A stretch of 64,000 nt of DNA from Mizuhopecten yessoensis. Lineage: Eukaryota. The stretch covers positions 491,902 through 555,901 of the forward strand of contig NW_018408710.1 of the NCBI RefSeq assembly GCF_002113885.1, given 5' to 3'. Numbering within the stretch: the stretch's first letter is position 1; each line of letters opens with the position of its first letter. The notes under the pieces are model-generated. The model was given only the letters and a program-made list of their open reading frames with translations. It ran no database searches and was not told the origin of the DNA. Below are positions 5,470 through 39,108 of the stretch, piece by piece. Both the position numbers and the translations under genes were made by a program.

Positions 5470-5715
5470 AGGTGGGGAAAGAGGTGGTGTGGGGTGGTTG
5501 TCGGGAAGGGAATGGAAGGGAGGGGATTCAGGTTCGTTTTGGTTTGGTTAAGGTTGGAAGGGGGAAGGAGGAGGGGGTGNGAGGGGGAGGGGGTTCTGAC
5601 TCTTTTTGGTTGGGTTAGGGTTGGGAGGGGGAGGGAGTTCTGATTCTTTTTGGTTGGGTTAGGGTTGGAAGGCGGATGGGATTCAGGTTATTTTTGGTTG
5701 GGAGTTGGAAGGGTT
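5470..5715 (+). repeat. G-rich ~44-bp satellite, short version
   Basis: About 5 degenerate units of ggattcaggttcgttttggtttggttagggttgggaggggg. Confidence 0.8.
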
Positions 5716-6420
5716 TCAGTTTTTTTGTTTTTTGTTTTGTTTTAATTTTTTATTTCTCACCCGACACGATTCTCACCCGGGTTCAGGTTCTTTATCTTTG
5801 GCTGCTATTAAAATTGGTTTATGGTCCGATTTCCACGTAAATAAATCAGTTAGAAAGAACGGAATGCCTTAGTTTAATACGAAGTTTTGTGATATCAAGT
5901 CACCTTTATTGTGATACCAATGTAGGTAGCTTTAGTTCGTTAAAGAGATAATCCTTCACTTTATAATGAATAACGGTTATAGTGTGACCGATATATATAA
6001 TGAGTAATCAGATTCAGATTTTTTATTACTTTTGTTTACACATCCGCGGCACATCAAAGTTACTATGTGAATAATATTTAAAAATCAATCCTAACTCGAT
6101 GAAACATGACCGATGTTTATCACGGTAAAAGGTTATTTCTTGCATTTTCAGTAGACACACTTAACTAACAGGACGGGTTCAAAAACTTCAAAGCATCATG
6201 GAAACTTCCGGTAACTGAAAATATAATGCAACGATGGCCTATATATTATATATATATTTTTATTGTAATTTTCAAATACATTGTTATGTTAATTCCTTTT
6301 AATTTGTAAAATAATTAAAAAAATTCCACAATTGGTTCGAAAAAAAGGCTCGTTTAGTGATACCCATTAGAAACTGAGACTATGGCATTTAACACTCGTT
6401 GGATCATGAATGGCAATAAT

Positions 6421-8130: not shown

Positions 8131-8504
8131 GTAATTGGGGCTAGCTCAGTATTGAGTTAATATAAATACAACCACCAATGGCGAAGATTTCATGATTGAG
8201 GAATTATTGAATTCTTAAAACATACATAGGAAATAATATTATAAATAGTAATACTTCTACCACTGGCTTTGTATTAATAAAGAAAATGATGTTTGTAAAA
8301 CCTATAGATTTTTCATCTCATTTTGAGACTTATATCGTGGGTTCCGTAAAACCGACTTTGAAATTGAATTCGCCCAAATGTGTTTCAAAAGGTAATCTTC
8401 CCAAATTTCTAAAGGTTTTCGAGGTTTTCATTCTATGTTCAAATATATAACCTACAACCAATCACTAAAACATTACACAAATGCGTAATAGCATAAATAC
8501 CGTC

Positions 8505-8670
8505 GAATGACTGAGCTAAGATAAGAATCAAATTTCATATATATTTAGTTAAGATAAGAATCAAATTTCATTTATATTCAGTCAAGATAAGAATCAAATT
8601 TCATTAATATTCAGTCAAGATAAGAATCAAATTTTATTTATATTCAGTCAAGATAAGAATCAAATTTCAT
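8505..8670. repeat. 33-bp minisatellite (duplicated at ~22670-22865)
   Basis: About 5 units of gtcaagataagaatcaaatttcatttatattca. Confidence 0.85.
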
Positions 8671-8759
8671 GTATACATGAAATTTAAGGTATGTTTTACA
8701 AGTGCAGTGTATATTAACTTGAATGAGCACTTTTACTCGACGACAGTCAATGTTGACAT

Positions 8760-9600
8760 CGGCAGGGACGCTAATGAAAAAAGGTAGTATCTGCTCCGAC
8801 TTTTTGTCACTACTACAAAGTATTAAAAACCGGAACTTTAACAACAATCTCGTACAAAATATTGCCCTTTGTATTAACAGAATCTTAGTTTTCTGTCAAC
8901 TGATCTTGATTTGGATTCCCGGCCATGTCGGAATTAATGGAAATGAAAAAGTGGATACAGCTGCTAAGGCAGCACTTAACCTCAATACGAAAGAAATCAA
9001 ACTGCCTTATTTTGATTTCAAACCTTGAATAGCGAATTTTATTAAAACGATTTTGCAAAAGAAGTGGTCTGAAGAAATGAAAAATAAGTTGTTTTCAATT
9101 CAACCTAATGAAGCTATATGTTCATGTGCAAAAGGTAGTGCAGACCGCAGAGAGGAAGTTGTCCTCTCGCGACTACGCATAGACAATACCTACATCACAC
9201 ATAGTTATATATTACAGAAAGAAGACCATCGTTACTGTCATGCATGTGATCAACCATTTACAGTCAAACATTTTATGATTGAATGCGCTGATTTCAAACA
9301 AATACGCGACAGATTTTATAATGTACCCTCTATGAAACGTTTATTTGATACAGTTTCTGTGCAATCAATCTATGATTATTTACATTCAATCAATCTCTAT
9401 ACGATATGATACATTTTTATAAACAATTCGTTTGTTATTGATATATTTTGACATCTTTTACACATTTTAACCTTTTCTTTCTGGTTTTTATGTACATGTA
9501 TTCATTTTTTTGTCAATGCTTATTTTTTTCATCGTTGTTTGGCTTTTATTGATTCAAAGTGTCGAGTGGTCGTTAAACAATAGAAAACAAACAAACAAAC
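8760..9600 (+). mobile_element. 3' fragment of an RNase H-bearing LINE (I-clade-like)
   Basis: RNase H motifs ICSD...WIPGHVGINGNEKVDTAAK and C-terminal LSRLRI...CHACDQPFTVKHFMIEC, with an in-frame stop and an (AAAC)n tail. Confidence 0.85.
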
Positions 9601-9709
9601 ACGGTCTGCTTATTGTGATTCACCACCATGATACATAGGTTAGCCATTAAACCAGCCGTGTGGTGGTAAGTGCCGTATAAACAAGATGTTCAGTTAATAT
9701 TTTAAAGCA

Positions 9710-11690
9710 GTCAAGTATATTAGTCACTTATCTTATTACATCAAAGTATATAAGTACATTTTTTTAAAACATCAACTTATCTCAAGCCACTTATTTTATT
9801 ACATGAAAGAATACAAGTCACTTATTTTATTACATCAACGTTTGTCAGTCAGCTATTTTATCTCATCAAAGTATGTAAGTCACTTATCTTATTACATCGA
9901 AGTATACTAGTCACTTATTGTATGATATCAAAGAATGTTAGTCACTTATTTTATGATGTGAAAGTATACTAGTCACTTGTTTTATTACATCAAAGTATAT
10001 TTGTTACTTATTTTATTTAACCACTCACTGATCTTATACTCAGTCGCTCAACTCATAGCATCAAAGGATATCAGCCGTTTCTAATATTAAAAACACACAC
10101 TATATTCCAGTCACTTATAACATCAAAGTAAAAACGGGCTACGGCGTAACTGGTTATAGGATGGTTAGTGACATCATGTATATAGAACTAGATAGGGATA
10201 TGAGAAAGAAATACAGGGATAAAGCGTTTGGCTAAATTGACATTCTATTTGCATACTCAAGCATATCTCAATTGTAGCTCCATCTATATTTAGGCTCCAA
10301 CTGGTCACAAAACTATCAATACCTAATAATTGGTGCAAAGTAACACTAAACCATAGGGAAACATTGAACCAGAGTAACATTTAACAACATGATAGCACTA
10401 AACCAAAGGGTACCACAACACCACAGGGTAACATTTAATCATAGAATTACAAACTAATTCTAAAGAACAGGGTAACACTTAAAAACACGAGGTTACACTA
10501 AACCACACGATAACACTTAACGACAGGGTAATACTATTCCACGGGGTTACACTAAATCACGGAGTAACAACATTGAACCACATGATAACAATAAAACACA
10601 GGGTAACACTAAACCATAGGCTAATATTCATTCAAGGGGTAACACTCCACCACAGGGTAACATTAAACCAAAGGGTTACACTAAACTACAGAGTAACACT
10701 AACCCACAGGTAACGTTAAACCACAGGATGGCACTCCACCACAGAGTAAGACTAAACCACAGGTAACACTAAATCACATGATAACACAAAACAACCACAA
10801 GGTAACACTCAAACAATGGGTTACAGTAGACCATAGGGTAAAACTCATCCACCGGATATCACTAACCATAGTCTAACACTAAACCACCTAGTGGTGTAAA
10901 ATGTACCTAATACGCAGACAGACCCTTGTAGTAAAACACGACTGGTTATGCCATGAACATCTGGTACACTTACAACCCGGTAGTGTAAACAGTATCTGGA
11001 CTACAGAATAACCAACGAGTGATGTAGACCGCAGTTGTTATGCAGACAAACCTTTATAGTGAGACACGACACTAAACCACCCAGTGATCTAGACCATACC
11101 TTGTATGTAGACAAGTCCTTATAGTGAGACACGACACTAAATCATCCAGTGATGTAGACCATGCCTTGTATGTAGACAAGTCCTTATCGTGACACACGAC
11201 ACTAAACCACCCAGTGATGTAGACCATACATTGTATACATACAAGCCCTTATAGTGAGGCACGACACTAAACCATCCAGTGATCTAGACCATACATTGTA
11301 TACATACAAGCCCTTATAGTGAGACACGACACTTAACCACCCAGTGATGTAGACCATACATTGTATACATACAAGCCCTTATCGTGACACAGGACACTAA
11401 ACCACCCAGTGATCTAGACCATACATTGTATACATACAAGCCCTTATAGTGAGGCACGCCACTTAACCACCCAGTGATGTAGACCATACATTGTATACAT
11501 ACAAGCCGTTATAGTGAGACACGACACTTAACCACCCAGTGATGTAGACCATACATTGTATACATACAAGCCCTTATAGTGAGACACGACACTTAACCAC
11601 CCAGTGATGTAGACCATGATTGGTATGCAAACAAAACCCTTATAGTGAAACACTACACTAAACCACCCAGTGATCTAGACCGTAGTTGGT
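9710..11690. repeat. Stacked minisatellites: ~31 bp (9710-10020), 18 bp (10335-10890), 65 bp (11000-11690)
   Basis: Units agtcacttattttattacatcaaagtat, gggtaacactaaaccaca, and cccagtgatgtagaccatacattgtatacatacaagcccttatagtgagacacgacacttaacca. Confidence 0.88.
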
Positions 11691-12429
11691 TGTTGGTATC
11701 AATTTTGTTAGGAACCGATGGTCCTTTTACGTTCTTGTTCCTGCAATCCGGTCGTCTAAAAGTCTACCCATTGTGTTGGTTGGTTGTTTGGTTTCAATCA
11801 TAACATTGAAAGGACAGACGGAAACTGATCACCTACTTAAGTGAGGTCATGCCAGATAAAACTCAACCTTTGGGATTACATTCTTGAATGTATGACCCTC
11901 AGGTGAAACAATCCCGAAGATTGGCCCCTGGATTAAGATTTTTCTGTCTTACCCTCACAGTAGAGGAGGAACCCGGGCCCATCAATCTACTGTGAGAAGC
12001 TGTACGATCGTCGCCATAAGCTGGTTTTAACTGAAGGTCTCGGTGTCTGCAATTATTAAATGTAAACATCTAACGCAGCCTATATTGTTAGAGCGACTCT
12101 TGACTTGACAGGTGCCATCACGATGGCAGGAACAGGTAGAAACAGTAACCCTTCCACAAATTCCCATTCGCCTTGCTTATAGACTAGTATATCATAATGT
12201 CTTACTGTTGTTTTTGTTTCTGACCGGTTACTGTTGTTCTTTTAAAGAGTAACCCCCTAACGTGCACGTTCCGATTTTCTTTGATGTGTTGGCGGCATGG
12301 AATTGTTGTCTAGTCAACTTACAATTTCTTCACAACGTGTTTTCTATATTTGTCACTAAGTGTAAAAGTACTTTCAATTTCAGTACGACCTAAACCGCAA
12401 CTTCATGTAGAGGGGTATGTTGGTATGAC

Positions 12430-14433
12430 TTAAACAAGCTGGAACACATGTACAGTGTTCTGATCCAGCGATCCGTTTGTGATCACTACTCTGTCAGCAC
12501 ATACAGAAATCGCCCTCGGCTGCTGTATTCCATCTGATGACGTCAGTAGTTCCCTGACGTTTGTCCCGTCCCCGGACATCTGTATGACGTTGTGAGAATC
12601 AAAGCCACAAACGTACACGTTGTTTTCCCTGTCCACGTCTATTCCTGTTGCATGCTTCAAAATCCCTGGTTTCATTACGTCCGTGCTCGAGCCGTCTGAA
12701 AGTCTAGTCACGGCAGATTCGTTAGGATTTTTGGTATGGAGACTGGCAAAGACGTGTCCACTATGATGATCGCTAGCGAGGTGCAAGCACATTGTTTTTA
12801 ATGTGTGAAGTTGTGATGTTATCCCATCTTTTCTTGATACGCTATAAAGTGATGTATCTGTGCCGACGACAAACCTGTTATTCCGGTATGTTATACCATA
12901 GCATCTTTTAGTCGTCATTGGCAACTTAATTGTTGATGTAAGGGTCAACTTTAAGTCCTCCACACTGACTATACATATGGTGTGCTCCCGCAGCATCACT
13001 GCTACTGTGTTGTCGTCAACTTGACATAGATCTACAGGCGTCCCATCCATACTGATGTTACATAGGAAGTCTCCGTTTTCTGTAAATTGCTTGATATTTT
13101 TGTTCGCCCAGTCCCCTAAGACAATGAAACCACCATGTAGGTATACAATCCCACAGGAAAAGCTGTCTGATTTATCAGAAGGAAGTTTGATATTGAACTT
13201 TCCCATAATCCTCAGTTGTCTTTCAGACAATGGCACACTCAAGGTAGTTGTAGGCAGATTTCTCTGTTGTTTATCAACAACTATCTTCCCCATGGTCAGA
13301 TCGGTGTTTGTGTCGAAGGTTTGCGTGTCATACTCATGTCTCAGGGTGGTGGATACTGACGATTTCTCCAGTTCCTGTATCAGTCCCTTACAGGATGCGA
13401 CCTCAGCTCGCCCTCTCTGAAACAGACAAATCGTCCCTACAGTGTTGTCTGTCATTGTTGCTTCTTCGGATGACGTCAATGTGTTCTGCATAGCGAACAT
13501 CAGCCGTTCACATTGCTGTCTCGATAATTCCAGATTTGCCTTTTCGTCCTTAAAGTGTGTTATCAGTTTATCCGTCAGCTCTTTCTGTAGCGTATCGAAC
13601 ATCCGATCAATGTTTTGGCGTAGATCTGTTAAACTTTTCAGTGCAGTGTCTTGATCATAGGAAATGGACTGAAGTTGTTCGCCAATATCTTTAATCAGCG
13701 TCTCCATGGCTTCTGTGCATTTATGAAGCAGGTCCATTAGATCATCAATCTTGGAGCTGTTTCTGAGTTTGTCCCGCGACTCTTCTATCGACATTACCAC
13801 TTCACACTTCCTGTGGTCGACGATGATGCATTTGCTACATCCAAGGAGCTGGTGGTCCTCGCAGTAATACTCTATTTTCTCATCATGTTTCCCACAATCG
13901 TTAGGCGAGACCTCTCGACGCATTTTGGCTGACATGTTTACGTCCGCGATGTCCCTCGGTTCGCATTCTTCATGAAACATGTCATGGTGGTCTACTTTGC
14001 AAGCTGCACAGAAGAAAGTTTTGTACTGTTCGCACCAGAATTTCACTGGCACATTCATTTTTCCTTTCTTTGCGCAAGGTCTGCATGCTGTTGGCTCACT
14101 TGTCTTCTGCGACAGTTTGATCATTTCTACAGCAAAATGATTGGTTGGGAACTGTTCGGCCCAGGTTTCCTTAGCTTCTGATTGGTTCACAGGCTCAGTG
14201 ACCTTCCGGCAAACAGGACAGGAGAAAAAAGACGCTGACACCGTCTTACCTGAAAATTCTTTTGTGATGTAACTTCCCAGGCATTCCTGGCAGAACAAAT
14301 GCAGACAGGGCAGGGACTTGGGATGTCTCAGCTGCTCCAGACAGATGGGACATTCCAGTAGCTGGGAGTCCAGGGACTGGCGTCTTTCTCTTTCTATCGA
14401 CGACGGTTGATGACGTGGTCCACCTTCCGCCAT
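12430..14433 (-). CDS. TRIM (RING-Bbox1-Bbox2-coiled coil-NHL-like beta-propeller) E3 ubiquitin ligase, copy 2, 667 aa
   Basis: C3HC4 RING (CPICLEQLRHPKSLPCLHLFCQEC...CPVCR), B-boxes (CRPC...FCAAC...HH; CGKH...YYCEDHQLLGCSKCIIVDHRKC), heptad region, and propeller blades (GIDVDRENNVYVC, PRAISV). The ORF is intact and encoded in one exon. Confidence 0.93.
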   Translation of the reverse strand: MAEGGPRHQPSSIERERRQSLDSQLLECPICLEQLRHPKSLPCLHLFCQECLGSYITKEFSGKTVSASFFSCPVCRKVTEPVNQSEAKETWAEQFPTNHFAVEMIKLSQKTSEPTACRPCAKKGKMNVPVKFWCEQYKTFFCAACKVDHHDMFHEECEPRDIADVNMSAKMRREVSPNDCGKHDEKIEYYCEDHQLLGCSKCIIVDHRKCEVVMSIEESRDKLRNSSKIDDLMDLLHKCTEAMETLIKDIGEQLQSISYDQDTALKSLTDLRQNIDRMFDTLQKELTDKLITHFKDEKANLELSRQQCERLMFAMQNTLTSSEEATMTDNTVGTICLFQRGRAEVASCKGLIQELEKSSVSTTLRHEYDTQTFDTNTDLTMGKIVVDKQQRNLPTTTLSVPLSERQLRIMGKFNIKLPSDKSDSFSCGIVYLHGGFIVLGDWANKNIKQFTENGDFLCNISMDGTPVDLCQVDDNTVAVMLREHTICIVSVEDLKLTLTSTIKLPMTTKRCYGITYRNNRFVVGTDTSLYSVSRKDGITSQLHTLKTMCLHLASDHHSGHVFASLHTKNPNESAVTRLSDGSSTDVMKPGILKHATGIDVDRENNVYVCGFDSHNVIQMSGDGTNVRELLTSSDGIQQPRAISVCADRVVITNGSLDQNTVHVFQLV

Positions 14434-14889
14434 ACTTACTGGGGCGTCTCTGATACGATATTACCTTGAACAGAAAGAGATGATTTTAAAATATTAACTA
14501 CATACATATGTGGCACCTCGTTACATTTGTCAATTGATTTTAACTCTTTATATTCCTAAGATTAAGTTAAAATATATTGAGTCTAATCAGTATTACTTTG
14601 TATAATATTGTTTCGTCGAATTTAATCAGTAATCGGCGCTCCGCATCCGCAGTCGGCTAGTCTCGTGTGTTACTTTCGTTTTGATTGGAATGTATGTGAG
14701 TGTGACGTAATTGTGTATGTTATTGTATACCTGTTTGACCAATGACAAACTGACCTCTGACACCTGTCGCATTGCATGATGTTTCCCGCGTTAATGTTTT
14801 CTTCGCTTGCTTCTCTATCCTTTCTTTTCTATTCACTTCCTATCTGCTCCTCGTAGAGGCAACATCCCCATATAAATATACCTTACAGA

Positions 14890-15817
14890 TTAAAAACATA
14901 AATTTTTCAGATCGTCCGCTGGGCCTTTCTGCCTTCTAGGGCTTCTTCAAGCCTTTATCAACGTTGGTTGCATGACGTCATCAATATTTGTATAGTCAAC
15001 AATTTTAGTGACGTCATAAATAAACAAGCATAGTGATGTCACAAACAATACCAAGACAAAGAAAACATCTACATACAATACATTGCAAAAATCATTGTGC
15101 ATTCAAGCTGGGTTTGAGGACTTTTATAAACATATTTTCTTTAATTTCTTTTGCAACTACATCGTCGCTATTCAGTTTGTTAATAGGTAACACATAAAAA
15201 TCATCTTTAAAACATTGATGCTGATATTTGCTACCTTTTAAAAATCTTAGTTCATTGTCCTTCATTTGTTATCTATGTACATTCATTCGTATTCTCAATT
15301 CACATCCGGTCTGTCCGATATAAAATTCACCACATTGTGTACATATTAAAGAGTAAATAACATTCTTAGAATTACAGTTAATGTCTGATCTAATTTCTAT
15401 TTTGGAACCATTTGCAAAAACGTAGTCTTTACATTCAATAATAATCTTACATGTACATAATGTACCACACCTTGGTTTCTTACATTATTTTACACCAGTG
15501 ACAACATTTGTGGTATTCAAGTCAAATTTGGATGTACATAGTAAACGTTTCAAGTTTTTAGGTTGTCTTTTACAGTTTATAATCTTCTTCTTATCAAAAA
15601 TACACTTCATGTTCTCACTGTTTTAAAATACACTTCATGTTCTTACTGTTTTTCATAAAATTTACAAAATGTTTAACGACAGGAAACATATTACAATTAT
15701 TTGGATTGTAAGTAGTAACAAATGGTATGATATCAGTATCTTTGGTGTTAGCTCTTTCTAAATTAACACTGACAGGGCCTTTCTCTTTAGCTCTTTGTAT
15801 GGCATTTAGTACCACTT
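14890..15817 (-). mobile_element. 5'-truncated Penelope-like retroelement (RT C-terminus plus GIY-YIG endonuclease), degenerate
   Basis: Minus-strand translation gives IPFVTTYNP and NCNSKNVIYSLICTQCGEFYIGQT, with stops. It is absent from the equivalent site in copy 1 and is flanked by an 11-bp direct repeat TACCTTACAGA (14879-14889, 15818-15828). Confidence 0.88.
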
Positions 15818-16554
15818 TACCTTACAGAATATAGAGAGATATACGTACAGAACTTTTCAACATGATTATACTAGTGGATCCCCGGGGGGTACCACATACA
15901 GAGTAAGCTATAAGTCAACTAAGCTATTGCTAAACTTAATAGATAATAAACTTATTTGGAATTGCTATAATTTTTCGTAAATTTCTCAAATATACTATGA
16001 GTGTGGTTATTTGGCTAGGTGAATACGTATACTTTCCTGATTTAACACCGATATTTTACTTCGGTGTAGGTTACTAAATGTTATATCCAGTGTTATGTGA
16101 ACCATATTCATGTGTAGTTTTCTAGGCTACTTCTTTAAATAATTGTTTTATCACTTTAGCTTTTAAAAAGTATCGTGCGTTTCAATGTAAATTGTCCATT
16201 TGATAAATGTATTGTTAGGCGAGTTCGTTTCTGTATATTGTCTCATGTGTGTTAAATATTGTTACAGGGAAATAAATAACCCACTGAAATCAAGGCATTT
16301 GGTACTCGTCGTCTTCTGATAGAGAACCCAAACACCACACATACACCGTTTTTTGAAAATCAGTTTGACCGAGACGGAGACAATTGTAAGAGCCTGAACC
16401 ATGTGTCATCGATTCTTAATAACCTCGATCTCATCTTGCATGTAACCATCAGCGGAGAAGGTATTACAGTGATACAGGAAAGATGGCTCTTAACTTTATA
16501 CCAGTCTAATCATGTTATTTATAATGTTTAAATGAGTAGGAAAAGGACCATATA

Positions 16555-16945
16555 TTATCACACCCTTCACAGGCGTGTCTCCCTTTTTAGCCGGGAAAGA
16601 TAAGCTTGTCACCCCCTAGGGGGAGATAGCCTCGTGCCGATTAGCACGTGTTCAATTGTGAGGTTATCAAAAGTGAATGACGATATGCATACCCCACATG
16701 TGTTTTTGTTTACAAACATGGAAGACTACTGTCGGTGGAGCTCTGACTGAAATAATAGGATGGGAGAAAAATAATCATCCCCTACGCATACCTTGAGGGT
16801 GTAAAAGAGAAACCTCCAACCCTCGGGGTGATTTTTTTGGTTGTCTTACCCTCGGCAGAGCCTCGGGTTAGACAACCAAAAAACATCACCCCGAGGGTTG
16901 GAGATTTCTCTGTCACACCCTTAAGGTAGGGGATGATTCTATTAA
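16555..16945. mobile_element. Non-autonomous element ending in a long palindrome (truncated duplicate at ~2848-3175)
   Basis: ~80-bp imperfect inverted arms (16773-16940) around the loop ctcggcagagcctcg. Confidence 0.6.
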
Positions 16946-18022
16946 TCAGCACTATTTCCCTTTGAAGTTTGAGCCCCTACAAATACAGGCACGATAGGTA
17001 AACCTATAACTTATAGCATTCACATTCAGTTAATAATAATTACGTGTATATTGATTTATAAATACATAGTTTCTTTATTTTCCAACAATATAAAACCACT
17101 TTTCCCAACCTATTTTAACTGCTCTTGTTGCCCCTGGAAGCGTGCGGAAACCGAAGGTGGGGCAGGTGACCCAATACCTTTTGGTTGTCCGATCGGAGAA
17201 TTGAACCCCGGCCGTCTTGGTGAATGGCGAGTGAGTGATCATGAGTGCGCAAACTACTTTCAGTCGAGTCCCTCATGTGTAAAACACATCCGTAACATTA
17301 TTTCAGTAATCAGTATAATCCATGTAGCACTTTTAAATAGTTACCCAGAATATAAATGCTACTAATGCTACACTAATTCATCCTAACCAAACCATTGGAG
17401 CTTTAAATGTATGGGTAGAACTACAATCCATGTAGCACTTTTAATTACTCATACATGAGCCAAACCATTATCCTTAACCCCATTCAGCATTCCAAAGCAA
17501 GTCCATGAAGCGTATATAATGTAGGTCAAATTCAGTGCGCGGAACATGCACTTAAGGTAAAATCACTTGCTGCATCAGTGATGCAGGTATAATCTATGTA
17601 GCATAGTTTCCCAGATATGACTAAACAAGTATTCCTAACCAGCCTCACGGGCGGCAGTCGAAGGGACGGAACGTTGGACGCCATTTTAATATCCCGTAAC
17701 ACGTTTGTCACGTAGGGTATCATAACTGGTAAAGTCATCACGAATATAGAGATGTACATTGTATATATCTTGTTGAGGAATATCAGATATCATCCAAACG
17801 GATGAAAAAATTGATATTTCAGCAAATTATTAATTTTTCGAGCGGAAATAAATTCGTTATGATGTACTTTCGTTTCACATATATCTATCATTATGATGTC
17901 ATACAACTCTATTTATAATACTTCCTGAAATAAATAAAGACATACAAAGAAATAAAGTTATTTAGCTTTTACATATGCTTAGTACAGATGTACCATGAGT
18001 TCTTCTTTATCTGTGTACTTAC

Positions 18023-18160
18023 GTTTTAGTCTTTGTTTAAGCGACCAGTACAGCTTCCTTCCTCGTCACGCTTATCATCATTTGACCCTTGGAATTCGAC
18101 CTTTGTATGTCTAAATCTTAAACCGGAATACACGAATCACCCGTCTGAAGTCCGGAAATA
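18023..18160 (-). promoter_or_regulatory. Putative non-coding exon 1 and core promoter of TRIM copy 2 (intron 14465-18022)
   Basis: Same acceptor and GTAAGT donor as copy 1. Confidence 0.55.
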
Positions 18161-19309
18161 TACACGTATGCGTACAGTATGCTCATGTTCAGTTATTATT
18201 GGTTTCAGGTATTGTTTTATAAAATGTAATAGTTTAAATGTTATGTAGTATATAATTGTGATATATACATTGTAATACGTAATATTGTGATAATGGTGTC
18301 TCATAGGTCAACACTGGCCGGACATTTCTTATGCATAGTTTTTAAACACTGTAAAAAGTATTTGATGGTACATGCATGTATTTAAATGTGTGACACGTTA
18401 ATTAAATATTTATTATTATATCATTAATATCATGTAATATGAATAAAATAAATAAATTGATTCCTAATCAGTGTTAAAGAGAAACATATCCGGTACAGTA
18501 ATTATTATCTCGATATCAACAGTACGTACGGTGGTGCTAGCACGTGTTTCAGCCGGTAGCTTTTTTTAAGCTTACGTTGTTGTTATGGTAATGTAATACA
18601 TTATCATTGATAGCAAGTGACTGTAATCAACAACAAATTACTTCAAAAGAATTTCAAAAGCATTTCTCTGTGATTTTAGAGTACGGAAAGTGATGACCTG
18701 ACTTTAATTTCTTACATTTTATAAAATTGTGTTTCGTTTTAAATGAATGTGTAAAACAATTTTTTGAAAAAGTGTGTGTTTGCGATGTTTATTAAAAGTC
18801 CCCTGCTTGCATACATCCAGGCCGATAAAAATATAGTTAAAATAAGCTAACAAAAATAACTTGTTTCATAATGGTTGTTAAATAAATAATTTCTTCAAAA
18901 ATAAAATAATAATTACTGCAAATTTCGGCTTTAAGGGATTAGGTGGTCCTAAATGTGTGACTCCATTAGATTTCCGACGTTTCATAGTCTATTCCTAGGT
19001 GTTGATCTCACTTATTCTTTATTCTTTTATACATTGTAGATCTTAACTTGTAAATTGAGATAATAGTTGTTCAGATATCTGTACATGTATATACTTATCG
19101 CTGAGTGTTGTTATATTGTTCTTAATACCAGTATACTTTTAGAAATGTAAATATTTGGATTTTGTACTAAGGGAACGGTACAGCGTCAGCTAATTATATA
19201 TAACCCTGTACATGGCGGATGGTAACGCACGTACTGATACAAAACAGCAATATATATTCACAAAACGTGCCATACACAGGTTGAGGTGGGGAAAGAGGTG
19301 GTGGTTGTC

Positions 19310-21132
19310 GGGAAGGGAAGGGAGGGGAGTCAGGTTCATTTTGGATTGGTTAGGGTTGGGAGGGGGAGGGGATTTAGGTTCGTTTTGGTTTGGTTAGGGT
19401 TGGGAGGGGGAAGGGGGGGGGGNNNNNNNNNNNNNNNNNNNNNNNNNNNNNNNNNNNNNNNNNNNNNNNNNNNNNNNNNNNNNNNNNNNNNNNNNNNNNN
19501 NNNNNNNNNNNNNNNNGGATTCAGGTTCGTTTTGGTTTGGTTAGGGTTGGGAGGGGGTTAGGATTCAGGTTCGTTTTGGTTTGGTAAGGGTTGGGAGGGG
19601 GAAGGGGGGGCGGGGTCAGATTCGTTTTGGTTTGGTTAGGGTTGGAAAGAGGGATGTGATTCAGGTTCGTTTTGGTTCGGTTAGGGTTGGGAGGGGGTTA
19701 GGATTCAGGTTCGTTTTGGTTTGGTTAGGGTTGGGAGGGGGTTAGGACTCGGGTTCGTTTTGGTTTGGTTAGGGTTGGGAAGGGGAGGGGGTTCAGATTC
19801 GTATTGGTTTGGTTAGGGTTGGGAAGGGAAGGGTGGTTCAGATTCGTTTCGGTTTGGTTAGGTTTGGGAGGGGGAGGGGATTCAGGTTCGTTTTGGTTTG
19901 GTTAGGGTTGGGAGGGGGTTAGGATTCAGGTTCGTTTTGGTTTGGTTAGGGTTGGGAAGGGGGTTCAGATTCGTTTTGGTTTGGTTAGGGTTGGGAGGGG
20001 GATGGGATTCAGGTTCGTTTTGGTTTGGTTAGGGTTGGGAGGGGGTTAGGATTCAGGTTCGTTTTGGTTTGGTTAGGGTTGGGAAGGGGAGGGGGTTCAG
20101 ATTCGTATTGGTTTGGTTAGGGTTTGGAGGGGGATGGGATTCAGGTTCGTTTTAATTTGGTTGGGGTTGGGAGGGGGTTAGGATTCAGGTTCGTTTTGAT
20201 TTGGTTAGGGTTGGTGGGGGGTTAGGATTCAGGTTCGTTTTGGTTTGGTTAGGGTTGGGAAGGGGGTTCAGATTCGTTTTGGTTTGGTTAGGGTTGGGAG
20301 GGGGATGGGATTCAGGTTCGTTTTGGTTTGGTTAGGGTTGGGAGGGGGTTAGGATTCAGGTTCGTTTTGGTTTGGTTAGGGTTGGGAAGGGGAGGGGGTT
20401 CAGATTCGTATTGGTTTGGTTAGGGTTTGGAGGGGGATGGGATTCAGGTTCGTTTTAATTTGGTTGGGGTTGGGAGGGGGTTAGGATTCAGGTTCGTTTT
20501 GATTTGGTTAGGGTTGGTGGGGGGTTAGGATTCAGGTTCGTTTTGGTTTGGTTAGGGTTGGGAAGGGGGTTCAGATTCGTTTTGGTTTGGTTAGGGTTGG
20601 GAGGGGGATGGGATTCAGGTTCGTTTTGGTTTGGTTAGGGTTGGGAGGGGGTTAGGATTCAGGTTCGTTTTGGTTTGGTTAGGGTTGGGAAGGGGAGGGG
20701 GTTCAGATTCGTATTGGTTTGGTTAGGGTTTGGAGGGGGATGGGATTCAGGTTCGTTTTAATTTGGTTGGGGTTGGGAGGGGGTTAGGATTCAGGTTCGT
20801 TTTGATTTGGTTAGGGTTGGTGGGGGGTTAGGATTCAGGTTCGTTTTGGTTTGGTTAGGGTTGGGAAGGGGGTTCAGATTCGTTTTGGTTTGGTTAGGGT
20901 TGGGAGGGGGATGGGATTCAGGTTCGTTTTGGTTTGGTTAGGGTTGGGAGGGGGTTAGGATTCAGGTTCGTTTTGGTTTGGTTAGGGTTGGGAAGGGGAG
21001 GGGGTTCAGATTCGTATTGGTTTGGTTAGGGTTTGGAGGGGGATGGGATTCAGGTTCGTTTTAATTTGGTTGGGGTTGGGAGGGGGTTAGGATTCAGGTT
21101 CGTTTTGATTTGGTTAGGGTTGGTGGGGGGTT
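19310..21132 (+). repeat. G-rich 44-bp satellite with a 303-bp higher-order repeat
   Basis: Unit ggattcaggttcgttttggtttggttagggttgggagggggtta. A diagnostic variant recurs at 20148, 20451, 20754 and 21057. Contains the N gap. Confidence 0.92.
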
Positions 21133-22944
21133 NGAGTTTATCGCGGTAATAGGTTATTTCTTGCATTTTCAGTAGACATACTTAACTAACAGGACGGGTT
21201 CAAAAACTTCAAAGCAACATGGAAACTTCCGGTAACTGAAAATATAATGCAACGATGGCCTATATATTGTATATATATTTTCATTGTAATTTTCAAATAC
21301 ATTGTTATGTTAATTCCTTTTAATTTGTAAAATAATTAAAAAATCCACAATTGGTTCGAAAAAAAGGCGCGTTAAGTGATACTCATTGAAAACTGAGACT
21401 ACGGCATTCAGCTAGAAAAGACACTCGTTTGATCATGAATGGCAATAATCTGCACTGCAGGAATTTAAAATCCACATACACTTAGGTATTTATTTCTATT
21501 TAGGAATAGAACATACCACATTTAGATAACACCCGAACATAGAAATATTGTCCTTTGAAAAATCTCACAGCATATTCACACGAAGAATTAATATTTTCAC
21601 AACCAGTATCCATGAATTTCAAATCAAGCTGCTTTCACAAACATTTATATTTTTAATGTTTTGAGAGTACACTTGATTGAAAATATGAGTATATTATATG
21701 CACTCCAACCAAACGTCCATTATCTTGAGACCTAAAGAGTCGAAATCATTTCTACTGAATGAGACGTGTAAGCACGACAATTTTGTGTGGTATTTAGAGA
21801 TTTGGGGCCCTGTTTACAACACTGTTTGTGTTAATCCATGCGCATATATGCTTAAATATTTCTTTTGATTTGTAGTTGTTGCCTCATTGAAAACATAATT
21901 TGTGTTTTTTCTTTGATTTATTAGTACTTAATTTGTTATTGAAATCCTTTTAACATGCTTATTTGCATGTAATAGGATTTGTTTTTCTTTGTTTAAGTTA
22001 ATTATTTAGCTAACAAAATCCTACTAACATGCTTATTGCATCCAATCTATGTTATAGGATTTGTTTTTCTTTGTAAAAGTCACTTATTTAGCCGAAGAAA
22101 TTATACTAACATGCTTATTGCATCCAGTATATATAAAATCAGTTATTTTCGTGGTTTTTTTAAATAGCTTATCTCTGGTTTCAGAAAGCATACTCACACG
22201 TTTATTTGCATCCAATATTTTCAGTGACTTACTTAGATACAGAAACCCAATAAATATGCTTATTTGCATACAGTCTTAGTAATTGGAGCTAGCTCACTAT
22301 TGAGTTAATATAAATACAACCACCAATGGCGAAGATTTCATGATTGAGGAATTATTGAATACTTAAAACATACGGAGGAAATAATATTATGAATAGTAAT
22401 AATGGCTTTGTATTAATAAAGACACTCAAGTTTGTTTTGAAAAAAAATGATGTTTGTAAAACCAATAGATTTTTCATCTCATTTTGAGACTATCGTGGGT
22501 TCCGTAAAACCGACTTTGAAATTGAATTCGCCCAAATGTGTTTCAAAAGGTAATCTTCCTAAATTTCAAAAGGTTTTCGAGGTTTTCATTCTATGTTCAA
22601 ATATATAACTTACAACCAATCACTAAAACATTACACAAATGCGTAATAGCATAAATACCGTCGAATGACTGAGTTAAGCTAAAAATCAAATTTCATATAA
22701 ATTCAGTCAAGATAAGAATCAAATTTCATTTATATTCACTCAAGATAAGAATCAAATTTCATTAATATTCAGTCAAGATAAGAATCAAATTTCATTTATA
22801 TTCAGTCAAGATAAGAATCAAATTCATTCATATTCAGTCAGGATAAGAATCAAATTTCATTTATACATGAAATGTAAGGTATGTTTTACAAGTGCAGTGT
22901 ATATTAACTTGAATGGGCACTTTTACTCGACAACAGTCAATGTT

Positions 22945-23780
22945 GACATTAATGAAAAAAACTATTATCTGCTCCGACTCTTTGTCACTACTACAAAGTA
23001 TTAAAAACCGGAACTTTAACAACAATCTCGTACAAAATATTGCCCTTTGTATTAACAGAATCTTAGTTTTCTGTCAACTGATCTTGATTTGGATTCCAGG
23101 CCATGTCGGAATTAATGGAAATGAAAAAGTGGATACAGCTGCTAAGGCAGCACTTAACCTCAATACGAAAGATATTAAACTGCCTTATTTTGATTTTAAA
23201 CCTTGAATAGCGAATTTTATTAAAACGATATTGCAAAAGAAGTCGTCTGAAGAAACGAAAAATAAGTTAATTTTCAATTCAACCTAATGAAGCTATATGT
23301 TCATGTGCAAAAGGTAGTGCAGACCGCAGAGAGGAAGTTGTCCTCTCGCGACTACGCATAGACCATACCTACATCACACATAGTTATATTTTACGTAAAG
23401 AAGACCATCGTTACTGTCATGCATGTGATCAACCATTTACAGTCAAACATTTTATGATTGAATGCGCTGATTTCAAACAAATACGCGACAGATTTTATAA
23501 TATACCCTCCATGAAACGTTTATTTGATACGGTTTCTGTGCAATCAATCTATGATTATTTACATTCAATCAATCTCTATACGATATGATACATTTTTATA
23601 AACAATTCGTTTGTTATTGATATATTTTGACATCTTTTACACATTTTAACCTTTTCTTTCTGGTTTTTATGTACATGTATTCATTTTTTTGTCAATGCTT
23701 ATTTTTTTCATCGTTGTTTGGCTTTTATTGACTCAAAGTGTCGAGTGGTCGTTAAACAATAGAAAACAAAAAAACAAACA
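22945..23780 (+). mobile_element. Duplicated copy of the I-clade LINE fragment
   Basis: Near-identical to 8760-9600; duplicated along with the unit. Confidence 0.85.
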
Positions 23781-23889
23781 CGGTTTGTTTATTGTGATTC
23801 AACACCATGATACAAAAGGTTAGCCATTAAACCAGCCGTGTGGTGGTAAGTGCCGTATAAACAAGATGTTCAGTCAATATTTTAAAGCA

Positions 23890-25590
23890 GTCAAGTATAT
23901 TTGTCACTTATCTTATTACATCAAAGTATATTAATACATTATTTTAAAACAGCCAATTATTTTATTACATGAAAGAATACAAGTCACTTATTTTATTACA
24001 TATACGTTTGTCAGTCAGCTATTTTATCTCATCAAAGTATGTAAGTCACTTATCTTATTACATCGAAGTATACCAGTCACTTATTGTATGATATCAAAGA
24101 ATGTTAGTCACTTATTTTATGATGTGAAAGTATGCAAGTCACTTATTTTATTACAAGGAGGTATATTTGTCACTTATCTTATTATATCAAAGTATGTCAG
24201 TCACTTATTTTATTACAAGAAAGTATATGTCACTTATTTTATAACATCGAAGTATTTTAATTACTTATTTTATTACATCAAAGTTACATCAATGCCTGAT
24301 AACTGGTACAAAGTAACACTAAACATCAGGGTAACACTAAACATCAGGGTAACACTAAACTTCAGGGTAACACTAAACATCATGGTAACATTAAACATCA
24401 GGGTAACACTGAACATCAGGGTAACACTAAACATAAGGGTAAAACTAAACATCAGGGTAACACTAAACCACAGAGTAACACTAAAGATCAGGGTAACACT
24501 AAACATAAGGGTAACACTAAACATAAGGGCAACACTAAACTACGGGGTAAAACTAAACATTAGGGTAACACTAAACATCAGGGTAACACTAAACCACAGA
24601 GTAACACTAAAGATCAGGGTAACACTAAACATAAGGGCAACACTAAACTACGGGGTAAAACTAAACATTAGGGTAACACTAAACATCAGGGTAACACTAA
24701 ACCACAGGGTAACACTTAACATCAGGGTAACACAAAACATCAGGGTAACACTTAAGATCAGGGTAACACTAAACCACGGGGTAAAACTAAACATTAGGGT
24801 AACACTTAACCACAGGGTAACACCAAACATCTGGGTAACACTAAACATCTGGATAACACTTAGCATCTAGGTAACACTAATCATCAAGATAACACTAAGC
24901 ACCAGGGTAACACTAAACCACAGGGTAACACTAGACATCAGGGTATCACTAAACCACAGGATAACACTAAACATCAGGGTTACACTAAACCAATGGGTAA
25001 CACTTAACCACATGGTACAGCTCTGTAACACTAAACCACGGGTTAACACTAGACCGAGGGGTAACACAACATTACTGGATAACAATAATCAACGCGATAA
25101 CACTAAACCACATGGTAACACTAATTAATCACAGCGTTAAACTAAACCACAGGGTAACACTAAATCATTGGCTTACACTTAACCACAAGTAACACTAACC
25201 CACAAGATAGCACAACACCACAGGGAGACACAAAGCCATAGAGTAAAACTAGACCATCCGGAACCTAATATGCAGACAAGCTCTTATTGTGAGACACGAC
25301 ACTTAGTAACCAAGTGATATAGACCGTTATAGGTACGCAAACAAAATCATTAAAGCTTAACAATCAAGTGATGTAGAACATAATGTGTATGCAGACAAGC
25401 CGTGATAGTGAGACACGACACTTAACCACCCAGTGATGTAGACTATACATTGTATGCAGACAAGCCTTGATACTGAGACACGACACTTAACCACCCAGTG
25501 ATGTAGATCGTAGTTGGTATACAGACAAGTCCTTATTGTAAGAAACGACACTAAACTATCATGTAATGTAGACCGTAGTTGGTACACTAT
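23890..25590. repeat. The same stacked minisatellites in the next unit, with the 18-mer expanded and the 65-mer contracted
   Basis: 31-mer at 23890-24285, 18-mer at 24310-25260, 65-mer at 25270-25590. Confidence 0.88.
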
Positions 25591-26159
25591 CCATCGCTTG
25601 TGTTAGGAACATATTGTCCTTTTACTCTAAAATCTGTTCCAGCAATCGCGACGTCTAAAAGTCCATCCATTATGTTAGGTTGATTGTTTGGTTTTCAAGC
25701 AAAGCATTGAAAGGACAGAACAAAAATGGATCATCACCTAAATTGAGGGCATGCTCCAAACAAAACTCAACCTTTCGGGTTAAACAATCCCGAAGATCGG
25801 CCCCTGGATTAAGTTATTTCTGTCCTACCCTCAAAGTAGAGGGGAGCCCATCAATCTACATGGAGAGGTTCTAAGATCGTCCTCAAACTCATATTTGCCT
25901 TGCTCATAGTGTATCATAATGTCTTACTGTTGTTTTTGTTTCTGACCGGTTACTGCTGTTCTTTTGTAGAGTAACCGACTTAACGTGCACGTTCCGATTT
26001 CCCCTTAAGTATAATTGTTGTGGCAAAGTATTGTTTTCTAGTCTACGTACAATTTCTTCTTATTTTCTATATTTGTCACCTATTGTAAAAGTAATTTTAA
26101 TTTCAGTACGACTCATACCGCCGGCAACTTCGTCATGTAGAGAGGTACACGTGTATGAC

Positions 26160-28166
26160 TTAAACAAGCTGGAACACGTGAACAGTGTTCTGTTGATCTG
26201 GCGATTGGTTGGTGATCACTACCCTGTCACCACATACAGAAATCGCCCTCGGCTTTTGTATTCCATCTGATGACGACAGTAGTTCTCTGACATGTGTCCC
26301 GTCCCCAGACATCTGTATGACGTTGTGAGAATTATAGCCACACACGTACACGTTGTGTTCCATGTCTACGTCTATTCCTGTAGTAAGTTTCAAAACCCCT
26401 GATTTCAATACGTCCGTGCTCGAGCCGGCTGAAAGTCTAGTCACGGCAGATTCGTTAGGATTATTGGTATGGAGACTGGCAAAGACGTGTCCACTTTGAT
26501 GATCGCTAGCGAGATGCAAACACCTTGATTTTAGTGTGTGAATTTTTGATGTTATCCCAAATTTTCTTGATACGCTATGAAGTGATGTATCTTTGCCGAC
26601 GACAAACCTGTTATTCCGGTATGTTATACCATAGCATCCTTTAGTCGTCATTGACAACTTAATTGTTGATGTAAGGGTCAACTTTAAATCCTCCACACTG
26701 ACCATACATATGGTGTCCTCCCGCAGCATCACTGCTACTGTGTTGTCGTCAACTTGACATAGATCTACAGGCGTCCCATCCATACTGATGTTACATAGGA
26801 AGTCTCCGTTTTCTGTAAATAGCTTGATATTTTTGTTCGCCCAGTCCCCTAAGACAATGAAACCACCATGTAGGTATATAATCCCACAGGAAGTACAGTT
26901 AGATTTATCAGAAGGAAGTTTGATATTGAACTTTCCCATTATCCTCAGTTGTCTTTCAGACAATGGCACACTCAAGGTAGTTGTCGGCAGATTTCTCTGT
27001 TGTTTATCAACAACTATTTTCCCCATGGTCAGATCGGTGTTTGTGTCGAAGGTTTGCGTGTCATACTCATGTCTCAGGGTGGTGGATACTGACGATTTCT
27101 CCAGTTCCTGTATCAGTCCCTTACAGGATGCGACCTCAGCTTGCCCTCTCTGAAACAGACAAATCGTCCCTACAGTGTTGTCTGTCATTGTTGCTTCTTC
27201 GGATGACGTCAATGTGTTCTGCATAGCGAACATCAGCCGTTCACATTGCTGTCTCGATACTTCCAGATTTTCCTTTTCCTCTTTAAAGTGTGTTATTAGT
27301 TTGTCCGTCAGTTCTTTCTGTAGCGAATCGAACCTCCGATCAATGTTTTGGCGTAGATCTGTTAAACTTTTCAGTGCCGTGTCTTGATCATAGAAAATGG
27401 ACTGAAGTTGTTCGCCAATATCTTTAATCAGCGTCTTCATGGCTTCTGTGCATTTATGAAGCAGGTCCATTAGATCATCGATCTTGGAGCTGTTTCTGAG
27501 TTTGTCCCGCGACTCTTCTATCGACATCACCACTTCACATTTCCTGTGATCGACGATAATGCATTTGCTGCATCCAAGGAGCTGGTGGTCCTCGCAGTAA
27601 TACTCCATTTTCTCATTATGTTTTCCACAATCGTTAGGCGATACCTCTCGACGCATTATGGCTGACATGTTAACGTCCGCGATGTCCTTTGGTTCACATT
27701 CTTCATGAAACATGTCATGGTGGTCTACTTTGCAAGCTGCACAGAAGAAAGTATTGTACTGTTCGCACCAGAGTTTCACTGGTACATTCATTTTTCCTTT
27801 CTTCTCGCAAGGTCTGCATGTTGTTTTCTCACTTGTCTTCTGCGACAGTTTGATCATTTCTACAGCCAAATTATTGGTTGGGAACTGTTCAGCCCAGGTT
27901 TCCTTAGCTTCTGATTGGCTCACAGGCTCAGTGACCTTCCGGCAAACAGGACAGGAGAAAGAAGACGCTGACGCCGTCTTACCTGACAATTCCTTTGTGA
28001 TGTAACTTCCCAGGCATTCCTGGCAGAACGAATGCAGACAGGGCAGGGACTTGGGATGTCTCAGCTGCTCCAGACAGATGGGACATTCCAGTAGCTGGGA
28101 GTCTAGTGACTGGCGTCTTTCTCCTTCTATCGACGACGGTTGATGACGTGGTCCACCTTCCGCCAT
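26160..28166 (-). CDS. TRIM (RING-Bbox1-Bbox2-coiled coil-NHL-like beta-propeller) E3 ubiquitin ligase, copy 3, 668 aa
   Basis: Intact paralogue of 12430-14433, about 91% amino-acid identity by manual comparison, with the same domain motifs. Confidence 0.93.
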   Translation of the reverse strand: MAEGGPRHQPSSIEGERRQSLDSQLLECPICLEQLRHPKSLPCLHSFCQECLGSYITKELSGKTASASSFSCPVCRKVTEPVSQSEAKETWAEQFPTNNLAVEMIKLSQKTSEKTTCRPCEKKGKMNVPVKLWCEQYNTFFCAACKVDHHDMFHEECEPKDIADVNMSAIMRREVSPNDCGKHNEKMEYYCEDHQLLGCSKCIIVDHRKCEVVMSIEESRDKLRNSSKIDDLMDLLHKCTEAMKTLIKDIGEQLQSIFYDQDTALKSLTDLRQNIDRRFDSLQKELTDKLITHFKEEKENLEVSRQQCERLMFAMQNTLTSSEEATMTDNTVGTICLFQRGQAEVASCKGLIQELEKSSVSTTLRHEYDTQTFDTNTDLTMGKIVVDKQQRNLPTTTLSVPLSERQLRIMGKFNIKLPSDKSNCTSCGIIYLHGGFIVLGDWANKNIKLFTENGDFLCNISMDGTPVDLCQVDDNTVAVMLREDTICMVSVEDLKLTLTSTIKLSMTTKGCYGITYRNNRFVVGKDTSLHSVSRKFGITSKIHTLKSRCLHLASDHQSGHVFASLHTNNPNESAVTRLSAGSSTDVLKSGVLKLTTGIDVDMEHNVYVCGYNSHNVIQMSGDGTHVRELLSSSDGIQKPRAISVCGDRVVITNQSPDQQNTVHVFQLV

Positions 28167-29194
28167 ATTGACTGGGGCGTCACTGCTACGATATTACCTT
28201 GAACAGAAAGGAAATATATTAAAATATAAGCTACATCATTAACAACAAAAATGTACTGTTTCTGTGAATGAAATGAGTATCAGCAAATCAGTTTGACCGG
28301 GGCGAAGACAATTGTCAGAGCCTGAACCATGTGTCATCGATTCTTAATAACCTTGATTTCATCTTACATGTAACCACCAGTGGAGGCGGTGTTACAGTGT
28401 TTCAGTGGTACACGGCTCTTAACTTTATACCAGTCTTTTTTTGATGATTATTTTTTTATTCAGATTTATCATCAATGCAATGCACATGTACTATAAATAG
28501 CAAAACATTCACTCATTTGTATACTCGCACATACATACATAAACCTATATACGTTATGTCCACATTTGTCAAAGAGTACATCCATTCTCAGGATTCTCAT
28601 ATTTATCACACTAGCACAAACTTATATACTCATTTCCGTCTATTTTTACATTTCAACATTTTATTACCCAGATATACGCATCCATCCATGTGTCTGACAT
28701 ATGTATGTCCCAATCATTCAATGCTATGTCTCGTGTACAAATAGAACACCTATCCACCTTCATCACATGTGGTATATATCTTCGTGCTGGAAAAAATATC
28801 TGCACTAAATTATATATAACCGCACATACTGTATAACTCTTGTCCATGTCAAAAACACCCATGTCCATTGATAAACATAATTAATATCAGTTCACCATAC
28901 TCACATACGTTGTACGCAAACATACCCATATGCATGATATTAGACATTTTCAGACATTCGTGTATCTACTGCAAGGAGAAGAAATATCAGTCTCACACAC
29001 AAAAAACGGAAGAAAAAAAAGAAACTTTTAAGGTAAATGAGAAATTTGCACAGACCGTCTACTGAGTACATTGCATTGTCTTTATAAGAAAGAGGAATTG
29101 AGATAGAGATTGAAAAAATAAAAAGAAAGGGAGAACAGAGAACACAAAGAGAAGGGAGAAGAAAGGTAGGATAAATTGGGGGCAGATGGTGGAA

Positions 29195-39077: not shown

Positions 39078-39108
<31 letters not shown>

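Follow-up and report, generated by a model that had tools for sequence, protein, structure and literature searches.

What are the three neighbouring TRIM-like genes in this 64,000-nucleotide stretch of the Mizuhopecten yessoensis genome (the window), and has selection diversified the face with which their proteins would bind a ligand? Here, we propose that they form a tandem array of TRIM ubiquitin ligases working as variable-specificity intracellular receptors, in which a ring of residues on the C-terminal propeller would be under diversifying selection. We give this reading a probability of roughly two in three. A literature search that largely excluded subscription journals and bioRxiv supplements found no account of selection in bivalve TRIM-NHL propellers.

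A tandem array of TRIM-propeller genes

The array consists of three minus-strand copies, each with its coding sequence within one exon, in a tandem segmental duplication (1..28236, no strand assigned) whose units of ~13 kb were delimited by self-BLAST (1-12840, 12841-26573 and 26574-28236). Copy 2 (12430..14433; P0001, 667 aa) and copy 3 (26160..28166; P0002, 668 aa) are intact TRIM genes. Copy 1 (1..1592) is represented by codons 1-531 and runs past the window edge; a one-base deletion near 720 causes a frameshift, making it either a pseudogene or an assembly error, and its C-terminal half is the database protein P0079. The initial annotation called the array young, which holds for copies 1 and 2 (97% alike, with flanks 3-6% diverged) but not for copies 2 and 3, whose flanks are 13-20% diverged (JC); judged from these comparisons, coding identity makes the array look younger than it is. 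It also called the array lineage-specific, a description that has to be given up: the family comprises more than 100 scallop proteins, with members in four named scallop species and more distant relatives in freshwater mussels. The 19 loci added by a metagenome scan were too distant to serve in codon tests, their best segments being 22-50% identical. NCBI's automatic names for these proteins follow no pattern (TRIM2-, TRIM33-, TRIM56- and TRIM25-like).

The copies are TRIM proteins with a RING finger, B-box and probable coiled coil, followed by a six-bladed NHL-type propeller. In copy 2 (all features on the minus strand), the C3HC4 RING finger occupies residues 28-75 (14209..14352), with all eight ligands present in the sequence; Pfam zf-C3HC4 scores 32.4 bits here, and the two values for window proteins are 32.4 and 34.3 bits (cut-off 21). 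Residues 117-157 (13963..14085) have conserved Cys/His/Asp columns in alignment A2 and, from their motif spacing, form what we take to be a degenerate first B-box-like zinc finger, with Y137 at a position where Cys is expected. B-box 2 (residues 180-210, 13804..13896) matches zf-B_box at E=1e-4 and 22.7 bits, slightly short of the cut-off of 24.1, with conserved ligand columns, and 63 of the 75 alignment members match this model at E<=0.01. The probable coiled coil (approximately residues 221-390, 13264..13773) was placed by position and sequence composition. The propeller (residues 407-666, 12436..13215; in copy 3, by alignment, 26166..26948) was modelled by AlphaFold2 as a separate domain, giving 24 strands at a pLDDT of 94.8, and its best Foldseek match is the TRIM2 NHL domain (E=1.6e-12, TM 0.78). 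The Pfam NHL repeat matches neither window protein at E<=0.1; it matches 52/75 alignment members at E<=0.01. Proteins of the TRIM2/3/71 type carry a filamin domain ahead of the propeller; Pfam matched none between coiled coil and propeller in the window proteins. Nor is there a C-terminal B30.2/SPRY domain, the C-terminus being the propeller.

Copy 2 is present as spliced transcript contigs, near-identical in 4/4 sequencing runs examined (assembled contigs under coded labels, which give no expression ranking and in which copies 1 and 3 have no certain match). A splice acceptor, a pyrimidine tract followed by AG, lies 31 bases before its ATG (14464..14465, minus strand); the X1, X4 and X5 contigs lose their match at 14464, where depth drops from ~30 to ~2. 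Copy-2-like contigs differ at just 0-3 bases each across the four runs and so give no hint of allelic hyperpolymorphism, although such contigs lose rare variants. Alongside the 3' end of copy 2, X1, X4 and X5 contain a second, related 3' end, which has the 5-base deletion at 12180 seen in copy 3 and, in alignment, 24 substitutions against 46 for copy 3.

A ring of variable residues on the propeller

The initial annotation had counted ~34 differences and one indel between the propellers of copies 2 and 3 against ~25 in the N-terminal part. Our recount agrees: 34 differences in 259 comparable codons plus one 3-base indel, against 25 in codons 1-408 (Fisher p=0.003). The five clustered swaps that it listed are likewise all real (DSF/NCT at 423-425, TM/SR at 547-548, HA/LT at 594-595, FD/YN at 611-612 and GSL/QSP at 654-656). 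However, because dN/dS across the propeller is 0.54 (0.29 in the N-terminal part) and gene conversion is real, this region-wide excess is by itself no proof of selection; the ratio of nonsynonymous to synonymous changes does not differ significantly between propeller and N-terminal part (p=0.24), nor does the variation of all top loops from that of all bottom loops in the three window copies (p=0.19).

The signal lies instead in a narrower ring of 12 predicted top-face residues, two per blade, one before strand a (425, 465, 510, 548, 594 and 638 in copy 2) and one after strand b (442, 482, 526, 566, 611 and 654), with codons spanning 12472..13161 on the minus strand. The ring was defined from the structure model together with young clades of other scallops, which suggested it, and top and bottom were assigned via secondary structure rather than coordinates; what PMC4015489 defines as the top face is described there as the RNA-binding face of Brat. 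Each of the five swaps contains one ring residue. Between copies 2 and 3, 7/12 ring residues differ, compared with 25/106 loop residues (p=0.0065), and a fixed-sites codon model gives omega values of 0.3 for the N-terminal part, 0.55 for the remaining propeller and 4.8-5.3 for the ring (p=0.0003-0.0007), whether or not the model allows for segment-specific divergence and double-base mutations. When divergence is set to that of the flanks, ring omega is 2.2-2.5 (p=0.013-0.03). This direct dN/dS evidence comes from one pair, with 9 nucleotide changes in 12 codons, and five overlapping site sets were tried in the ring tests. Simple counting is less decisive, weakening to p=0.05 when each changed codon is counted once and giving p=0.053 or 0.22 when divergence of the 3' flanks is the reference. 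Non-ring top loops are near neutral, with omega at 0.7-0.8 relative to the dS of the whole gene or propeller. The codon model points, in one pair, to positive selection at the predicted ligand-binding face. Of the constant effector module that had been proposed, the constancy is borne out by the constraint on the RING/B-box/coiled-coil part. The proposed variable face (residues before strand a and in the b-c loops) is narrowed to a six-fold ring, so that dN/dS, below 1 for the propeller as a whole, is neither below 1 at the ring nor evenly spread.

The same ring varies in other scallop proteins. In young clades of three other scallops, it has 3.0, 2.25 and 1.75 extra residues per site, as against 0.86, 0.35 and 0.70 in other loops. 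Sister pairs from other subfamilies, which are out-of-sample relative to the clades that suggested the ring, show it as more variable at the protein level than each of the regions compared in 20/20 pairs: 128/205 ring positions differ (62%), compared with 322/1098 in other top loops, 82/720 in bottom loops (11%), 98/799 in outer strands and 818/7607 in the N-terminal part. The ring's variability is thus twice that of other top loops and five times that of bottom loops. Ring omega in other species is ~1.5-2.4, an indirect, protein-based value with constraint borrowed from the window pair. In the distant same-architecture cluster P0202 (15/38 members) 0/9 alignable ring sites vary, as do 0/8 in four copies of P0161, a weak control given poor alignment in blades 3-4, low overall variation and the aberrant tail of P0299, which inflates non-ring counts.

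What drives the variation

In the mechanism that we propose, the RING/B-box/coiled-coil part would be a constrained effector and dimerisation module, as in the TRIM family, and the top face of the propeller would bind the target, as in solved NHL domains. Diversifying selection would repeatedly alter the six-fold ring, while gene conversion and unequal exchange would even out the greater part of the coding sequence and move blade segments from one copy to another. By a crude count with no electrostatics behind it, top loops carry a net charge of +1 to +2 in the window copies and of between -6 and +3 in four relatives, and bottom loops one of -6 to -9; since the top loops are not strongly basic, protein ligands seem somewhat likelier than RNA. 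Whatever is bound at the ring would be ubiquitinated, with pathogens as the presumed driver.

Might the selection be real but its driver something other than infection? Positive selection does not name its cause: the proteins might be tracking endogenous targets that evolve fast (transposon proteins or RNA, selfish elements, germline or self/non-self factors), or might have diverged to serve different host substrates. Known TRIM-NHL proteins are described as post-transcriptional regulators that bind RNA on the same face, and the runs expressing copy 2 carry coded labels for tissue and condition. We consider such a driver unlikely: the family has expanded repeatedly at species level and keeps changing at the same sites, much like finTRIMs and fungal NWD receptors, both described as tied to non-self recognition.

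Relaxed constraint combined with gene conversion, by which the top face would drift neutrally after duplication while conversion elsewhere mimics acceleration, is in our judgement quite unlikely, yet much of what it needs is present. Copies 2 and 3 are mosaic, with a coding dS of 0.10 against flanks ~19% diverged. A tract of low synonymous divergence (codons 297-540; 12814..13545, minus strand; scan p=0.018) is read as gene conversion, sites at which copy 1 is the odd one out cluster at codons 316-435 (p=5e-5), and synonymous changes are scarcer in codons 301-540 (6/169) than in codons 541-667 (16/89). The low propeller-wide omega, the near-neutral non-ring top loops, the frameshift in copy 1 and the borderline counting tests also fit. 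Conversion therefore operates, a possibility that the initial annotation had raised, but rather than homogenising the N-terminal part alone it spans blades 1-3 too, and three ring changes fall within the converted tract. The ring signal holds under segment-specific divergence and omega stays above 1 at flank-level divergence; the 20 other pairs repeat the pattern; and, by an offset scan, conversion tracts could not select one residue per half-blade with six-fold periodicity. That the copies are alleles or haplotigs joined in tandem by the assembler is highly improbable: Ns at 5580, 19423-19516 and 21133 and the likeness of copies 1 and 2, with the frameshift, would allow it, but the 3' flanks of copies 2 and 3 are 17% different with indels, the second 3' end accompanies that of copy 2, other scallops carry similar TRIM arrays each on a single contig, and the argument applies to copy 1 vs copy 2 only, leaving the ring result untouched.

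Comparison with known systems

More tentatively, the diversifying-receptor reading may extend to a germline repertoire: each scallop genome, and probably those of other bivalves too, would encode dozens of antibody-like receptors acting in the cytosol. Each receptor would pair an NHL propeller, its 12 hypervariable ring residues reshuffled through gene conversion, with a RING ligase that would tag the recognised pathogen molecule. If true, this would give invertebrates an equivalent of TRIM5/finTRIM that relies on another binding fold, extending the TRIM arms-race pattern known for vertebrate SPRY domains to invertebrate NHL domains. The defined ring would turn anonymous TRIM2/3-like genes into a testable receptor repertoire, name residues to swap and sites to genotype in resistant lines, and, with the propeller, offer a natural scaffold with programmable specificity.

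The closest known architecture is that of the TRIM-NHL proteins (TRIM2/3/32/71, Brat and Mei-P26; class C-VII, Marin subfamily C), which share the RING/B-box/coiled-coil part, the six-bladed NHL propeller and its top-face geometry; the best fold matches of the scallop propeller are the NHL domains of TRIM2, Thin, TRIM3 and TRIM71. Identity, however, is only ~15%, the TRIM-NHL proteins are few conserved genes whereas the scallop family is multi-copy with a hypervariable top face, the top face of Brat and TRIM71 is strongly basic whereas the scallop top loops are not by the crude count above, and the filamin domain of the TRIM2/3/71 type is not detectable in the scallop copies. TRIM56 is a single vertebrate gene. 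Like the scallop copies it joins a RING to an NHL-like C-terminus, and in this RING ligase the NHL-like region is reported to bind viral RNA and to be required for restriction (PMC6623546). Teleost finTRIMs, described as discovered as virus-induced genes, and primate TRIM5alpha use a B30.2/PRY-SPRY binding domain where the scallop proteins have a propeller. In oysters, transcripts of TRIM2/3-like genes, which may or may not belong to the scallop family, are reported to track parasite tolerance, and transcriptomes of infected bivalves commonly include many anonymous genes of the TRIM2/3-like kind without mechanism (PMC9892467). A parallel in mode of evolution is the fungal NWD/HET-E family, for which concerted evolution is described together with diversifying selection on a handful of fixed sites in each blade, at the propeller's interaction face (PMC4986451). 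Both families would combine conversion-type homogenisation with a few variable sites per blade on the binding face, but NWD/HET-E proteins are NACHT-WD40 NLRs whose near-identical internal repeats shuffle, whereas the scallop blades are divergent, fixed at six and joined to a predicted RING ligase.

Diversification of a 12-residue ring

We propose that these scallop TRIM genes are under diversifying selection at a ring of 12 residues on the top face of the C-terminal propeller, a reading whose direct DNA evidence is one pair (copies 2 and 3) and to which we give a probability of roughly four in five, because codon models, counting tests and calibration from other species together make it likely. 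The top face of an NHL propeller consists of the b-c and d-a loops in the available text of PMC4015489, and residues were classed by that definition on the strands of an AlphaFold2 model (residues 401-667; alignment of 75 sequences), which gave a six-bladed propeller with a pLDDT of 94.8. Top loops were about twice as variable as bottom loops in each of three young clades, those of Argopecten (11 sequences; p=0.003), Pecten (6; p=0.02) and Mizuhopecten (5; p=0.013). A scan of offsets from all strand ends gave two sharp peaks, one for the residue that precedes strand a (mean 6.7) and one for the residue that follows strand b (7.3), with 4.5 at the second position after b, 3.0-4.3 for b-c loops counted back from c, and at most 2.6 at the remaining offsets.

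The ring so picked from other species (positions 425, 442, 465, 482, 510, 526, 548, 566, 594, 611, 638 and 654) was then tested twice, on the window pair and on sister pairs from other subfamilies. Between copies 2 and 3, 7/12 ring residues are changed, more than among loop residues as a whole (p=0.0065). The sister pairs (75-99.5% identity) came from a tree of 117 of the 122 long proteins, outside the defining subfamily; 20 were kept and 4 more distant ones dropped, with 9-11 ring sites alignable per pair. Over these 20 pairs, 128 of 205 ring sites (62%) are changed, against 29% for other top loops, 11% for bottom loops, 12% for outer strands, 12% for inner strands and 11% for the N-terminal part; in 20/20 the ring is more variable than the other top loops, the bottom loops, the outer strands and the N-terminus. 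The initial annotation had placed diversification at the predicted ligand face: the ring sharpens this, but loops of the three window copies showed no significant top-to-bottom difference (p=0.19).

Region-wide omega between copies 2 and 3 (propeller 0.54, N-terminal part 0.29) by itself proves nothing on selection. A fixed-sites codon model gave 0.3 for the N-terminal part, 0.55 for the rest of the propeller and 4.8-5.3 for the ring, the last departing from omega=1 at p=0.0003-0.0007 whether or not double-base mutations and segment-specific divergence were allowed. If flank-level divergence is assumed, the ring having been spared all conversion, ring omega is 2.2-2.5 (p=0.013-0.03). Counting tests on the ring are weaker than the codon model: p=0.006 when stratified, 0.05 with each changed codon counted once and, with the 3' flank as the reference, 0.053 or 0.22. 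Five overlapping site sets were tried in all. Other species provide an indirect calibration (ring omega 1.5-2.4, other top loops 0.5-0.9). The ring signal is real and well localised; the literature searched, in which subscription journals are poorly covered, held no account of such a pattern for bivalve TRIMs.

Array structure and gene conversion

Self-comparison resolved three tandem copies in units of ~13 kb, each with one coding exon on the minus strand. Copies 2 (12430-14433) and 3 (26160-28166) are intact, and copy 1, which extends past the window edge, lacks one base near 720; it appears in the protein collection as two pieces from the same contig (P0078 and P0079). Earlier counts for copies 2 and 3 (~34 differences plus one indel in the propeller, ~25 N-terminally) agree with ours (34/259 plus one codon indel, and 25/408; p=0.003 for the propeller excess), and all five residue swaps named with them were found.

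On the sequence evidence, gene conversion among the copies is real. Between copies 2 and 3 the flanks have diverged by 13-20% (JC) against a coding dS of 0.10 (copies 1 and 2: flanks 3-6% apart), and synonymous differences are uneven (6/91 sites in codons 1-130, 16/101 in 131-300, 6/169 in 301-540 and 16/89 in 541-667; scan-corrected p=0.018). Sites with copy 1 as the odd one out cluster in codons 316-435 (p=5e-5), and its protein is a mosaic (runs p=0.008), like copy 2 at 541-589 and like copy 3 over most of 591-646. The array, initially called young, is thus older than its 95% coding identity implies, and older divergence accounts for some of the raw excess seen in blades 4-6.

Minisatellite arrays (83, 31, 18, 65 and 44 bases; 6419-8012, 9713-11681, 19517-21132 and 21942-25584) lie in both units with differing copy numbers and are possible substrates for unequal exchange. 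A ~930-base insertion upstream of copy 2 (14893-15817), unique within the window, is missing from the copy 1 unit. Close likeness of copy 3 to copies 1 and 2 stops abruptly at 28236, a splice-acceptor pyrimidine tract 70 bases upstream of the ATG. A decayed element copied along with the tandem unit (8700-9406 and 22890-23600, plus strand) is presumably the RNase H-like tail of a non-LTR retroelement, and reverse transcriptase fragments upstream of copy 3 (32422-33595, minus) we take to be LINE-type. A second, multi-exon TRIM gene (37661-47805, minus), unrelated to the array, has a RING and B-box exon (47029-47805; Pfam), a coiled-coil-like exon (near 44261-44539) and, by eye and with no Pfam match there, FN3-like (within 39369-39914) and SPRY-like last (within 37661-38362) exons.

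Family membership and transcripts

In Pfam, a C3HC4 RING passes the cut-off and a B-box falls slightly short of it; by fold, the closest solved structures are NHL domains, those of TRIM2, Thin, TRIM3 and TRIM71 (TM 0.74-0.80, ~15% identity). At residue 137 of P0001, the copy 2 protein, a different residue takes the place of the fourth Cys expected in B-box 1; the column is variable across the family, and the zinc site may be rearranged. A first protein search returned 76 matches (74 from four scallop species, one weak Mytilus, one the query itself) and a profile search 155 at E<=1e-30; among the 120 of these listed, 119 were named, every one scallop. Ten more distant relatives of the same length included 4 from freshwater mussels and 3 from scallops, and 19 distant propeller-encoding loci (L001-L019) lie in metagenome contigs, 9 from one assembly. 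The spread of protein matches makes a scallop the most likely source of the window. Among the closest relatives, an N-terminal tree gives one species-specific clade each for Argopecten, Pecten, Mizuhopecten and the window, a pattern suggesting that expansion or homogenisation happened more than once. One Mizuhopecten member (P0048) is annotated with an attached reverse-transcriptase RNase H domain, possibly a gene-model artefact.

The stretch is present in 20 of the 23 listed runs, spanning 9 studies; the run data are contigs, from which expression levels and absence are not readable. Long contigs in the four runs examined follow copy 2 closely, each with 0-3 differences. Those of runs X1, X4 and X5 depart from the genome at position 14464, where a pyrimidine-tract/AG site lies 31 bases ahead of the copy 2 ATG and depth falls from ~30 to ~2, and are read as spliced transcripts; only X19 is recorded as RNA. 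Some copy-2-like contigs carry the copy 1/3 base at 13088 (L449; X19, X1 and X4) or, in X5, at 14228 and 14254 (S69 and L60), which makes a small number of the copy 2 differences polymorphic or private. Many further, more diverged paralogues stack on conserved motifs; summed contig depth of 260-1460 over the blade 5-6 motif (12535-12621) indicates many paralogues within the same runs.

Possible ligands and comparison with known systems

What might the ring recognise? TRIM families recruit an E2 through the RING, oligomerise through B-box and coiled coil and bring substrate through the C-terminal domain. Human NHL top faces vary in shape and charge by partner, in the portion of PMC9634614 available. 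A different ring on each paralogue would then bind a different target, which might be ubiquitinated or feed signalling. Top-loop net charge is just +1 to +2, whereas Brat, Mei-P26 and TRIM71 have basic top faces in the excerpts available, and this low charge leans towards protein or mixed ligands. The NHL-like tail of TRIM56 can bind viral RNA (PMC6623546). An immune driver is suggested by analogy and by oyster data: oyster TRIM2/3-like transcripts, whose membership in the scallop family is not established, track parasite tolerance (PMC9892467; both sources as partially available).

Compared with known systems, as far as the accessible portions of these sources describe them, the scallop genes share the architecture of TRIM-NHL proteins (subfamily C; PMC3503706), without the filamin domain. 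This placement is one of architecture, not of demonstrated orthology to any vertebrate gene. The scallop genes would work like finTRIMs (PMC2657112), but carry a propeller instead of B30.2. Fungal NWD receptors (PMC4986451) combine conversion with selection at fixed positions per blade, as we propose for the scallop genes.
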